Source of the DNA: Chrysomallon squamiferum
Lineage: Eukaryota; Animalia; Mollusca
NCBI GenBank assembly: GCA_012295275.1
Contig: CM022668.1
Span: 10,292,001 to 10,356,000 of the forward strand
Reading direction: 5' to 3'
Length of the DNA: 64,000 nt
A model generated the notes under the pieces. It saw only the letters and a list, made by a program, of their open reading frames with translations. It was not told the origin of the DNA and did no database searches. Each line of letters begins with the position of its first letter. The stretch's first letter is position 1. Made by a program: the position numbers and the translations under genes. Positions 446 through 63,702 of this stretch are shown here, in pieces.

Positions 446-3436
446 CTTCCTCTGTGTGACTTGGATTTTCCTAGTCGTGTAATTAGCTCGTACATTTACT
501 TCTGTGACAACGACATCGAAAAATTCCACAGTCAGTTTATTCTGATCATTCCAGTACGGTTCACATTTATGCTGCAAAATAAATAAATAAATAAATAAAA
601 ATAAATAAATAAATAAGTAAATAAATAAATAAATAAATAAATAGATAAATAAAAAAATAAATAATAAGATTTCAAGACATTTTAAAAGTCTACTACAATG
701 AATATAAAAGATGTAGTAGTAGTAATAGTAGTGGTGTACGAGTGGTGCTGTAGCACTGGTGGAAGAAGTAGTACTAGTATTATAGTAGTATTAATAGTAG
801 TAAGTAAAGAAATAAATAAGTCAATAAATAATTTTGAAATATGACAGAAAAAATATAATAAAATGTAAAGTCATTTTAAAAGCGTAATAATAATAATAAT
901 AATAATAATAATAATAATAATAATAATAATAATAATAATAATAATAGATACTCAAATAGATAGATAGATAAATAGACAGATTAAAAGACAGATTGATAGA
1001 TAGATAAAGAGATACAGAAACAAAGAAAATGTAACTACATTTAAAAATAATTAAAACCACAGACCTTTCCTTCTTCAATGAGATTTGTCAACATAACAAT
1101 TTGTCCGCAGTCTTGTTCCCAGATCATCCTCCAAAAGTCTGGCAAAGTCACCTTGTTTGGTGCTATAAACAAAAAACAGTTAATAAGGCAGACAAGTTTA
1201 TTTCTTTTTCAGCAGTCTAGAACGTAGGTTTTCAATCTGGGGGTCGCCATCCTTTCTTCTGGTGGTCGCGAGATCGTTCTTGGGCGAGGGTATGCTTTAG
1301 CTTTTCTTCAACTTGACTTGGAAGGAGGAATAAATAAAAACGTGTAGATTGGTTTGGGACCCGTCATAGTGAACACTGATTCCTTTGGTACTGACTTGGT
1401 TGATGAAAATATGCTAACCCTAGATATTATTGAATCAAACATTTTAAAGGGGATTTTTGGTCATATTGTGTTGCTCAGATGGGGTTGCGGTATGAAAAAG
1501 GTTGAAAATCAGTGGTCCAAAACGATATGAAACGATATAAAGGTAGTGTTCCACGAAGATATAATATCAGTGATCCAGTGAGTATAATGAATGGAAGTCA
1601 AGTTTGATAAGTAAGAATAGTATTTTATTATCGTATGGTATCGTATCTATCTATCTCTCTCTCTATCTATCTATTTATCTATCTATCTATGTATCTATTG
1701 AAATATATATTTGTCTGTCTGTAAATGCTCAAATATATAAATAGCTAACTGAACAGATACATTATCTTACCTTGAGAAGCTATGAAGTATTTTTTCTTTT
1801 CATAACCCTGTGAAAAAAGGAAAAAAAACATTATATATATATATATATATATATATTCGCATACATGGACATATACATGCATGTACGTGTGAGTCTGTAC
1901 ATATTTATATATGTATAAGTATTTATGTATGTATACATAAATATATGTATGCATGATGTATAGATGTTTGAGTAAGATTAGTTTTTATATGTGTGTGTAT
2001 ATATATATATATATATATATATATATAGATAGATCATACAGATTAGAAAGACAAATAGCTTGGTTGAATAGTTAAATACAAACACACAGTCACCCACATA
2101 TGCACACAACAAGAGAAAGATAGAGATATGTACAACCAGACACATATCAACACATATTTAAAAGAGAAATACCGACAGTTAGAGAACTATTGAAATTGTT
2201 CAGTGAAATGTTATGTTGACAACTTAAAACTTACGTCCACGTAACTGGCGTTGATGTAGTCAGAGTGGGGGATGTCTGCTAGTGTAGTCAGTTTCACTCG
2301 ATTGTTGTCGTCTGATAAAAAAACAAGTATCATTGGTAATACGAAAAAAATTATAATAAAATAAATAAATAAATATATATAAAGTAAATAAAAACGACAA
2401 TAATAATAGTAAAAAATAAAATAAACAAAGTAAATAAATAAATAAAAAGAAGAAGAAGAAGAAAATTACTAAACATAATTAGTAAAATCAGTTAGTAAAT
2501 GATTGATACAAAAATATGAATTGTTATATATGGATGGTTATAGTGTCATTTCGTATTAGTTATTTAGTAAGAAGTGAATAGAAAATATATATATGAAATA
2601 CCCAGCCACAGGGTATATCAGGTACATTATTGCGATTGTAATATTAATATTGGTATTAGTAGTAGCAGTGGTAGAGGCAAAAGTAATAGTAGCAGTAATG
2701 ATAGGTTATACTGTTTTTGCTATTATTAGTGTTGTTGTTGCTATTATTGTTGCTTTTGTTGTTGTTGTTATTATTGTTATTACTATTTTCGTTGTTGTTG
2801 TTGTTGTGGTTGTTGACATTGTTGCTATTCCTTCTGTTATTAGTGTATCAATACAGGATGAAGTAGCCTAATAGTTTTTGTACAAACAGTAATAATAATT
2901 ATAACTATTGTTGTTAAAAAATGTATTTATGAGGAATTTGGCTGTTCTTCAATGAGCAAAAACACTCTAAAGCTATCCCCAAATATAGACAGATTTATAA
3001 ACAGATATACAGACTTATAAACAAATAAACAACTGGATGTATAGATAAGTAAAGAAACAGACGTCCTAGGTGCAGACAGAGAGTAAGATAGATAAAGAGA
3101 CAAATAGATATACAAATAGATAGAGTGAGTAAGATAGACAGATATATAAATATGTTGACAGTTAAACAGATAAATAGTACACAGACTGTTAGGTTATACA
3201 TGAAAAAGAGAGAATTAGATAAGTAAATTGATAAATCGAATTTTCGATAGGTAAGTGATAATGTAAATACCGTCATGTGTAAATAATAGATAGAACGACA
3301 AACAAACAGCCAGAGAGATAGAAAATAAAAGTTAAATACTCAACACACACGGATAGTAACCAGCAAATCTGTTCTTCTTTCTGTTTTCTGGAATCTGTGA
3401 GTCTGTGTAAGGATGCTTGAAGCCGCTTGGAAGTTT
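446..3436 (-). CDS. N-terminal half of classical PTP catalytic domain of R1 (5 exons)
   Basis: Spliced translation: [107 protein letters not shown]. These match PTP motifs KNR(Y/F), DxxRVxL, DYINA, (Y/F)IAxQ, DFWxMxW, IVMLT and KCxxYW. Exon sizes 88/77/37/98 nt match the conserved receptor-PTP intron pattern. The WPD and HCSAG motifs lie outside the window. Confidence 0.95.
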
Positions 3437-61000: not shown

Positions 61001-63702
61001 TTACTGTCATCACGGAAGTAAACAGTTATATTTAGTATGTAGTATTCTGTTCCAAGATCCACCTGCCACCAAGTGTAGGATTGCACAGTATTTGTTAGTA
61101 TGCAGTTATTTGCGTAAATCCCTTGTGACAGGTCACCATCTACAGCCAGAGAAGAGTTGTGATATTCTTTACTATAATACGAACTCTGTTTGGTTTTTTT
61201 TTTCAAGAGCAACATTTTCTGAAATTTAAGTTAAATAAAGAGTAAAATATAATAATAATAATAATAATAATAATAATAATAATAATAATAATAATAGTAA
61301 TAATAATGATAAAGCGACAACAAAGAAGCGATACAAATTAAATAATTATACTCATTTAAAATCACACTCGCACGCACACACACATTCATACCTATCCATA
61401 CTTTTACGATACGCACGTATATACATACATACATAATGTACGTATGCACATATATACATACAAATAGTATACATTTACCAATTGTACATTTCGGTCCTGA
61501 CCATCGAATTTTGCAGGAATTAGGGTCGCCATTACATCCTGTGACGTCATCACAACTATTAACATCACAGTGACACGTGTAGTCACAGTTCAGTCCATAG
61601 GTTCCTGGTTTACAGTTACCTAGCAATGAAGTGTAGCAACAACTAAAATTAACAAAAACAACAACAAAAACAATAGCAGCAGAAACACCAATAAAATATT
61701 TCAATGGTCCTTAAAGGAACTTGCACGTCGTTGCTATTACTGAAAATTACAGCTTTTACGAAAATTACTACCTGTATTACTTCTTCTACTTTTCTACTAT
61801 TATTGCTACAAACTCGACTCTAGCTACTACTACTACAACAACGACTCAATACTTTTGTTTATGTAATGGCATTATCTCTCTCTCTCTCAGCGTGTATAAA
61901 ATTAACATGTGCAATACTACTATACTACTTCAACCACTATTACAGCTACAACTACTGCGCACATCCATTTCAACTTCTACTGGTTCTACAACTACCACGG
62001 TGATTACTACTGTGATTATATTAATTACTGTCACCTGAAGATTATGAGATACATTAACGAAAGCTACTATATTAATTAAAAGCAATATTAGCCAGCACAA
62101 AACACTTTAAAATTGCTTTATCATTCTGCAATCTTTACACACACTGATAAAATACGATACAGTGATAGCTTCAGAAACTAATTCCCATCTGCTTTGTCAT
62201 ACAAAACACTTCTGAGTCAGTAAACTTAATTCAACTAATGAACTTAGTACTTTTATTAAATTGTATTTACTCAGTGGTTTGTATGTATGTATATAATTAA
62301 ATATCTATGTCTGCGTGTGACAAATTACCTAATATGTATTCAGCCTTGAAATATATATGTAATCTCTCTGTCAATCGCTCTATCTATTCAATATTTATCT
62401 ATCTATTTACCTATCTATAAACATATATGTATGCATTTATCTATGTATAAATGTATAATTTTAGTATGTACATATATATGTAAGTATGTGTCTATGTTTC
62501 TATGCATGTATATGTAGATAGATAGATAGATTATACGTATATATATATATATATATATATAGATTTTACTCGTTATGTTTTACCACGTTTTGAAAGTTAT
62601 CTAGTTTTATTTTATTTCTTGCCTATAAGATAACTACCATCGCCATATCTGACCGCTTCCTGTATGCACGACGTCTGTAAACTCGACATCTTCCATCAGC
62701 TCGACGAAGCAGAAATCGAGCCTCGTCACTAAACCAGACAGTTATCCATCGTAACTGAGGCCAGACTCTGTGCACTTGACACCACTGAAGTCGTAGTGGA
62801 CGATGTTGTTGAGTCAAAACAATCTTCTTACAGGCCGTCTGGCTCGAATACCTGCCTCACGTAAACGATTGCACACTGAGCCGATATTCTGAAGCAGTAG
62901 AGGTTGCAATCGTGGTTCTTTCCCGTAGATGAAGTACCCGAATGTAGCGGTCCTGGGCCCTGGTGGTTACACGTGGTCTAACTGATCTGGGACGGTCACG
63001 TGTTATTTGGTGTTGCTGTAACCGATACCACAATCTCAAGATGGTGTTTGTGGATACATGGAACACCCGGGCTACGGCCGAGAAGGATTCGTCAGCTTGT
63101 AATCGGCCGATGGCGTTGTTTCGTTGCGGTTGACTCTGTCGTGGCATTTGTTTGATGTTTGTCAGAACAAAAATAACGAACAGAAGTATTCGACAACCTT
63201 GCATTTTTATAACCCTCGTATTCAAGTTTCATGAACCGCACGTGCACATGCACTGGTAACGTGGTTTGCATGCGGGGACGTTGTGGCTAATAAACTCGAT
63301 CATAGCCTTTATTTTGTGTTACCTGCTTTTTGGCGACTGTAACAAAAACTATACGTTTGAATCACCAAATGTCATTATATTCATAGTTTGTACATCAATA
63401 TGAGTCAGTCTACAATAGTTATCTAAGAAATCAACCATTTTGCTTTTCTTTTTTGGGAGAGTATATATATGTATATATATCCAACATCTAGAAATATTAC
63501 ACAAAACTCACTTGAAGTAAGTCAAATAAAATTAAACAGACTATCCAAAGAAGAAGAACAACAACAACCACAAAAATTATAATACATTTTTTTTTAAATA
63601 AAAAAAAACATAAATAAAACAACTCACCTTTTCCTGATACATGTTCAATCTTGAAATAAACGCACAAGGCAGAAAGAAAAAAAAAATCCAGCACTTCAAC
63701 AT
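55052..63702 (-). CDS. R7: class-II F-type lectin receptor with five post-lectin EGF repeats and ITAM-like tail; two homopolymer frameshifts (error or pseudogene)
   Basis: Exons: 63702-63628 (SP, -1 in a T10 run); 61619-61479 (EGF); 61218-61005 (+1 in an A10 run) and 60336-60136 (lectin); EGF 59458-59318, 59057-58914, 58204-58064, 57142-56999, 56549-56409; TM 55913-55817; tail 55400-55052. Confidence 0.82.
57480..57960 (-). mobile_element. Non-LTR retrotransposon (LINE) reverse transcriptase fragment in an R7 intron
   Basis: ORF 57633-57935: [10 protein letters not shown] (degenerate YADD), [15 protein letters not shown] and KHLGILF, typical of the RT C-terminal region of CR1/L2/RTE-type LINEs. 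Confidence 0.8.
62623..63463 (-). mobile_element. 3'-truncated Tc1-like DNA transposon in R7 intron 1
   Basis: ORFs 62857-63225 ([39 protein letters not shown]; paired-like HTH and GRPR-like motif) and 62623-62817 ([19 protein letters not shown]). A TA-flanked terminus lies near 63462. Frameshifted, and the rest of the DDE domain is missing. Confidence 0.88.

Follow-up and report, generated by a model that had tools for sequence, protein, structure and literature searches.

The question raised by a 64-kb stretch of the genome of the mollusc Chrysomallon squamiferum (contig CM022668.1, positions 10,292,001 to 10,356,000, hereafter the window) is whether neighbouring receptor genes with closely similar outer parts can be wired to opposing signals inside the cell. 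The window contains a tandem cluster of receptors built from EGF repeats and an F-type lectin, which end either in a tail rich in tyrosine motifs (represented by R2) or in a protein tyrosine phosphatase (PTP) domain (represented by R1). We tentatively favour, at somewhat less than even confidence, the reading that the two types act on the same cell as signalling receptor and damping phosphatase. The part of this reading carried by the sequence comprises the exon chains, the switch of inner parts at the transmembrane (TM) exon, the selection on the tail tyrosines, the variation of the lectin loops and the discordant histories of lectins and tails, while we infer the terms 'inhibitory', 'glycan-sensing' and 'paired'.

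Seven tandem receptor genes of two architectures

Exon chains were built from tblastn matches to the R1 exons together with splice sites. This yielded seven spliced tandem paralogs, R1 to R7, all on the minus strand (R7 63702-55052 to R1 11995-446), in agreement with the original prediction. R1 and R2 are adjacent and in frame, with GT-AG borders at every modelled intron. R1 begins with the signal-peptide exon, followed by EGF1 and two exons for the lectin, then by EGF2-5, the TM exon, two exons for the juxtamembrane region and five for the PTP. As had been proposed, R1 and R5 depart from the other genes at the TM exon, which shows 49-60% nucleotide identity to its tail-type counterparts, and their TM and juxtamembrane regions are unrelated to those of the tail types. 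The inner parts switch at the phase-1 intron that precedes this exon. All ectodomain exons downstream of the signal-peptide exon are of phase 1-1, so that in-frame swapping or skipping is possible. The expected absence of the lectin from R3 was also observed and extends to EGF1 and the other EGF exons outside its single remaining one. The seven-gene anatomy is real but weaker than had been claimed; only R1 and R2, one gene of each type, read unbroken in this assembly.

Ectodomain similarity and exchange of modules

The ectodomain of the PTP gene R1 is as near to those of the tail genes as these are to one another, since pairwise identities (R1-R2 316/361 or 87.5%, R1-R6 313/361, R2-R6 315/361) are similar and each of these pairs has a synonymous divergence (dS) of about 0.15, at a dN/dS of about 0.4. 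EGF2, in which R1 and R2 differ at two of 42 residues, is among the closest exons, and PTP and tail types share 96-98% identity in EGF2 and EGF3 compared to 71-92% in the flanks. The near-identity originally predicted for the ectodomains thus holds for EGF2 but not for the ectodomain as a whole or for lectin exon 1, where 16 of 68 residues differ between R1 and R2. The notion of one shared ectodomain unit had to be given up. Two lectin classes can be told apart, with about 39% nucleotide divergence between them, class A in R4/R7 and class B in R1/R2/R5/R6 (p-distance 0.38-0.40, bootstrap 100 in an unrooted tree that omits the lectin-less R3), and the number of EGF exons after the lectin position ranges from 1 to 9. 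The PTP type thereby has its lectin class in common with some of the tail genes, and one kind of tail occurs with both lectin classes.

Distances between outer and inner parts are discordant. R2 and R7 differ by a p-distance of 0.376 in the lectin compared to 0.046 in the tail and untranslated region (UTR), while the lectins of R1 and R2 differ by 0.094 despite unrelated inner parts, and tail plus UTR distances among R2, R6 and R7 amount to only 0.05-0.07. This discordance shows that outer and inner modules have separate histories and were exchanged. The region from the R2 tail to the first exon of R1 is 93% identical to that from the R7 tail to the first exon of R6, and upstream of R1 a segment of 400 bases matches its R6 counterpart at 96% identity; the 5' region of R1 is R6-like and its body R5-like.

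Minisatellites of a 21-base type are present at 5455-5655, 6150-6555, 23480-23680, 29600-29750 and 36820-37920. In several paralogs they sit 3' of the EGF4/EGF5 exons close to the site of divergence between PTP and tail types, and they are a possible recombination site. Intergenic distances in the cluster are only 859-1760 bases, and given the phase-1 exons, read-through splicing from an upstream ectodomain to the R1 TM exon would be in frame. A splice-acceptor-like sequence is conserved 10 bases 5' of each ATG (12006-12020 in R1), implying a non-coding upstream exon.

The tyrosine-motif tail

The prediction of five to six tyrosine motifs in the tails of R2, R4, R6 and R7 was correct (6, 5, 6 and 6, respectively), with the four tails counting as one evolutionary sample. 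Each contains three to four YxN sites (shuffle P 0.002-0.01; P=0.002 for the four-site count) and a terminal pair, YEKL-x9-YEKI, that resembles an ITAM (activation motif of the immunoreceptor tyrosine-based kind; shuffle P 0.008-0.025). With its spacer of 9 the pair agrees in four of four readable tails with Yxx[I/L]x(6-9)Yxx[L/I], a consensus that has been applied to Hydractinia Alr proteins (PMC9546547). None of the four tails contains an ITIM (inhibitory motif of the immunoreceptor tyrosine-based kind), an ITSM (switch motif of that kind) or NPxY. Within the six Y..Y+3 motifs, 0 of 24 positions vary, as against 29 among all 115 columns (P=3.6e-4; gaps, among them the R4 deletion of one motif, do not enter the count). 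The tail tyrosines look selected, and the invariance of the motifs is the strongest sign of what may be a working SH2-docking platform.

Searches of longer proteins with single exons, which are weak evidence, gave no match for the R2 tail (0/95 candidates), the R1 juxtamembrane region (0/89) or R1 lectin exon 1 (0/3). The R2 tail also had 0 matches among 1.84 billion representatives and none in metagenome contigs (0/236 pattern matches). In the ESM Atlas the two clusters closest to the tail, both unnamed, scored 0.94 and 0.92 (the latter with Mollusca as commonest group), with recognition below threshold and of value as a lead only, which together with the gene architecture points to a mollusc; SCIMP and A36R stayed below 0.8, and nothing was returned for the R1 juxtamembrane exon. 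Homology between the tail and the R1 juxtamembrane region was considered and rejected, as their local score of 48 (shuffle P=0.036) is composition-driven.

The lectin domain

Pfam PF22633/PF00754 matched R1 lectin exon 1 above cut-off, while the EGF exons gave weak DSL/EGF matches only. The PDB matches of the lectin were fucolectin-related proteins, FBP32 and eel agglutinin (E 2e-6 to 0.01). The F-type fold and the h2DGx cation motif are present (AVDG in six of six lectin copies, x = V in R2), and RxD...R/K is preserved. Of the 29 variable sites among the R1, R2 and R6 lectins, 17 are confined to one 36-residue segment (P=0.001), which aligns with the ligand-loop region around the binding cleft of solved F-type lectins and suggests that specificity has diversified among the three rather than being identical. 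Positive selection on the lectin was considered but not demonstrated, as dN/dS of lectin exon 1 is 0.4-0.8 and thus below 1.

The receptor PTP gene R1 and its copy R5

Within the window R1 extends over 696 codons with no stop, and its five PTP exons join in frame with correct phases. Three of the four scanned PTP exons matched Pfam PF00102, spanning profile positions 14-125 of 234. The predicted classical PTP is accordingly present as the first half of one domain, which is where the window ends. The phosphotyrosine (pTyr) loop reads KNRF; the consensus in PTPs is KNRY. No ITIM was found in the R1 juxtamembrane region, where the PTP domain takes over its position in the design.

R5 shares 99.1% identity with R1 across an alignment of 6565 bases including introns (62 substitutions, 11 indel events) and could be a recent duplicate or an uncollapsed allele, so that R1 is the one PTP gene certain in the assembly. 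Two plain haplotypes (R7-R6-R5 versus R4-R3-R2-R1) were considered and are unlikely for the tail genes, as the R2-R6 dS of 0.156 is at the level of paralogs; for R5 a haplotype origin is conceivable.

Integrity of the tail-type genes

Coordinates of the genes and their main parts are collected in Table 1. R3 has a stop within its sole EGF exon and a frameshift and a stop in its tail. R4 has lost its 5' end in the assembly gap, retains an EGF1 remnant with indels and has two +1 insertions in lectin exon 1; the sequence ends flanking the gap look degraded on both sides. The EGF2 exon of R6 that contains the in-frame stop has a length that is a multiple of 3, so its skipping is possible.

Table 1. 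Receptor genes, selected domains and the assembly gap in the window
Feature	Position	Strand	Remarks
R1, receptor PTP gene	446..11995	-	16 exons in window; 3' end beyond window
R1 PTP N-terminal half	446..3436	-	exons 3436-3349, 2311-2235, 1807-1771, 1162-1065, 571-446
R1 TM and juxtamembrane exons	3835..5307	-	5307-5205, 4821-4754, 4151-3835; YENL and NPYY/YNDV motifs
R1 F-type-lectin-fold domain	8442..9465	-	exons 9465-9259 and 8639-8442
R2, complete tail-type receptor	12854..19773	-	10 exons; 538 aa as modelled
R2 terminal tail exon	12854..13202	-	six Tyr motifs: four YxN and the pair YEKL-x9-YEKI
R3, likely pseudogene	21500..24901	-	signal peptide, one EGF, TM, tail; EGF1, lectin and other EGFs absent
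R4, tail-type, class A lectin	26661..35024	-	nine post-lectin EGF exons; tail without one Tyr motif
Assembly gap, 200 N	35025..35224		truncates R5 (3') and R4 (5')
R5, near-identical R1 copy	35225..43731	-	signal peptide to second juxtamembrane exon; cut at gap
R6, tail-type, class B lectin	44991..54165	-	in-frame TGA in EGF2 exon 50302-50174
R7, tail-type, class A lectin	55052..63702	-	frameshifts at base runs: signal-peptide exon and lectin exon 1 (near 61197)

The frameshift in R7 lectin exon 1 was checked at 82% likeness against contigs from four of eight sequencing runs, which are short and pooled over several paralogs. At position 61196 all depth shows a base other than that of the assembly in four of four runs, and contigs one base short at 61197 number at least two, one, one and five in the four runs. 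None among the contigs listed from these runs reproduces the assembly base run near 61197, and one run contains a contig identical to R7 across 60890-61064. On balance these contigs tend to favour an error in the assembly or an allele private to it. An elevated rate of homopolymer errors throughout the window was rejected, as R1 and R5 differ by only 11 indel events in 6565 bases, three of them of one base; with so few indels the lesions of the tail genes are not dismissible wholesale. Between 60890 and 61235, the four runs gave 21, 9, 8 and 50 contigs at 82% likeness or above whose intron-side ends differ, which indicates additional class A lectin genes beyond the window.

In R4, the three EGF exons before the TM exon (27990-29371, minus strand) differ from those of the other paralogs, and an exon remnant similar to them is present in R6 (47673-47804) with no clear acceptor site. 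An R7 intron contains a LINE-type reverse transcriptase fragment (57636-57974, minus strand; PF00078, E 1.3e-5, below cut-off), and the first R7 intron contains broken Tc1/mariner-like transposase pieces (62626-63228, minus strand; helix-turn-helix and Tc3 transposase matches, below cut-off). Fragments that look related to the latter, with no Pfam match, lie at roughly 10070-10495, 41500-41900 and 52300-52700 within the intron that follows EGF1. The GC content of the window is about 30%, a base composition that may resemble that of octopus genomes, and microsatellites are numerous.

Relation to known receptor systems

Vertebrate paired receptors such as KIR, Ly49, SIRP and CD300 are encoded by genes that are linked, resemble one another in the ectodomain, differ in the inner part and exchange modules; their inhibitory members carry an ITIM and activating members mostly rely on a charged TM segment and adaptors. 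The cluster described here, with its adjacent R1 and R2, shares the linkage, the similar ectodomains, the different inner parts and the module exchange, while neither the ITIM nor the charged-TM/adaptor feature is present. Among invertebrates, Hydractinia Alr and Botryllus FcoR form clusters in which receptor paralogs, some with ITAM-type and some with inhibitory tails, are accompanied by pseudogenes. The Alr ectodomains are Ig-like, and these families differ from the present cluster in their ITIM-based inhibition and their genetic links to allorecognition (PMC9546547, PMC12582321). Drosophila Draper-I/Draper-II, and MEGF10, have EGF-repeat ectodomains and ITAM signalling via Src42A and Shark/Syk that is damped by a phosphatase, as is proposed for the present pair (PMC4503800, PMC8092387). 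In contrast to the present genes, Draper switches on and off through splice isoforms, its phosphatase Corkscrew/SHP2 is recruited by an ITIM and not built in, and Draper/MEGF10 have no lectin domain (PMC4503800, PMC8092387). A further difference is that the tails here have no NPxY.

The closest counterparts are found in snails. In Biomphalaria glabrata, LG5R contains a cluster of single-pass receptors with signal peptide, EGF repeats and a galactose-binding/fucolectin signature, most of which belong to subgroup 1B with a small cytosolic part and four to subgroup 1C with two PTP-like domains (PMC13712769). By architecture, these are the R2 type and the R1 type side by side. R1 has the signal peptide, EGF repeats, galactose-binding/fucolectin domain and single TM of subgroup 1C, and the window covers the first half of one PTP domain. 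The expectation that annotation would miss the co-occurrence of the two types was consequently wrong for snails, where PTP and non-PTP subgroups have been described in one cluster (PMC13712769). The term 'ITAM' had 0 matches in the main text and 10 of 27 supplements of that paper, and tail motifs and pairing are not reported in these parts. The SudRes1 region of Biomphalaria sudanica combines MEGF genes with galactose-binding domain (GBD), TM and PTP with non-PTP MEGF genes, and its MEGF/GBD receptor PTPs are linked to parasite resistance (PMC12297450). It resembles the present locus in copy-number and EGF-number variation and in the difficulty of telling paralogs from alleles in the assembly, and differs in its adjacent antistasin genes, none of which was seen in the window (PMC12297450). 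ITAMs had 0 matches in the main text of that paper. As context at the family level, transcripts of both draper/MEGF-like and receptor PTP genes show enrichment in the agranulocytes of the oyster (PMC13070813). The architectures are thus already known, and what is new is the close pair of ITAM tail and PTP with swapped modules; no proposal of a lectin-EGF receptor pair with a built-in phosphatase was found in the literature searched, which leaves most subscription journals outside its coverage.

Proposed mechanism and alternative explanations

In the proposed mechanism, a ligand would cluster the tail receptor and a Src-family kinase would phosphorylate the tail, on which Syk/Shark would dock at the YxxL-x9-YxxI pair and Grb2-type adaptors at the YxN sites, as for Draper-I and MEGF10. 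The PTP receptor would be recruited to the same contact through its 87.5%-identical ectodomain and dephosphorylate the tail or its kinases, thereby setting a threshold. Every step beyond the anatomy is one that we infer. The modular design, the selected ITAM-consensus tail and the nearness of the R1 lectin to tail-type lectins are consistent with a paired system, which to this extent is supported. The wider idea of a molluscan paired-receptor logic, in which the inhibitory partner has a phosphatase built in where others have an ITIM, and in which recombination within the phase-1 intron preceding the TM exon repeatedly re-assigns diversified lectin ectodomains to ITAM tail or PTP, appears unlikely, if not strongly so.

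Several results weigh against opposition between R1 and R2. F-type lectins bind fucose through the triad HX24RXDX4(R/K), and those deviating from it may change or lose sugar binding (PMC5712786). The His of this triad is absent in six of six lectin copies, where the aligned residue is Leu or Asn/Asp, so the ligand is probably other than canonical fucose. Because R1 and R2 are unlike in their lectin loops, their ligands may differ as well, which weakens the idea of a shared one. The tail pair fits the wider ITAM consensus but not the strict x6-8 spacing, and the predicted ITAM likeness stands with this restriction. The 400 bases upstream of R1 are only 60% identical to those of R2 (about 82% in the proximal 255). 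Four of five tail-type genes (R3, R4, R6 and R7) are damaged in the assembly, leaving R2 as the only unbroken one, and recent duplication alone would explain the likeness of the ectodomains. Such duplication is at the core of a possible alternative that we consider less than probable, namely an unpaired birth-and-death family in which unequal crossing-over shuffles phase-1 modules and each receptor acts alone, the tail types as Draper/MEGF10-like scavenger receptors and the PTP type on other substrates. Besides the damaged genes, it would accommodate the varying post-lectin EGF counts, the mixed R6-like and R5-like origin of R1, the further lectin copies elsewhere in the genome suggested by the contigs with other intron-side ends, and the joint presence of both architectures in Biomphalaria clusters that gain and lose genes (PMC13712769, PMC12297450). 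The conservation of EGF2 and EGF3 above their flanks and the ectodomain dN/dS given above speak for constraint, though pairing is not required to explain them.

Other unfavourable points concern the phosphatase itself. The best PDB matches for one 32-residue PTP exon of R1 were PTP gamma, alpha, epsilon and zeta, with CD45 also among the best. PTP alpha, PTP epsilon and CD45 are able to activate Src kinases and to prime the Src-family kinases, and a cooperating pair, in which the PTP receptor promotes phosphorylation of the tail receptor in this way, would draw on this match. It would also draw on the YENL and NPYY/YNDV motifs of the R1 juxtamembrane region, which comprise two YxN sites and one NPxY and indicate that the design is not purely inhibitory. 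As the structural match covers 32 residues of half a domain, we regard such cooperation as improbable. Neither HCxAG nor WPD was found in six frames of the window, R1 running off its end in mid-PTP, and R5 reaches the assembly gap ahead of any PTP exon, so that none was seen for it. These absences, together with KNRF in place of KNRY, would suit a PTP that is catalytically dead or never joined, with R1 serving as an adhesion or scaffold receptor that has no phosphatase arm. This is highly improbable in view of the five in-frame, correctly phased exons with no stop and of the Biomphalaria relatives with two PTP-like domains (PMC13712769).

Implications for molluscan receptor clusters

EGF-lectin receptors and receptor PTPs are numerous in molluscs, and two genome-wide association papers on snails place such genes under parasite-resistance peaks with no signalling model. 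The adjacent pair described here, whose 87.5% identical ectodomains lead to an ITAM-type tail in one gene and to a PTP in the other, makes a direct test possible. If the opposition of R1 and R2 is true, it would represent a design not found in the literature searched; if not, the locus would be an ordinary birth-and-death cluster. If the pairing with a built-in phosphatase is true, it would offer a mechanism for the MEGF/GBD receptor PTP clusters tied to schistosome resistance in snails.

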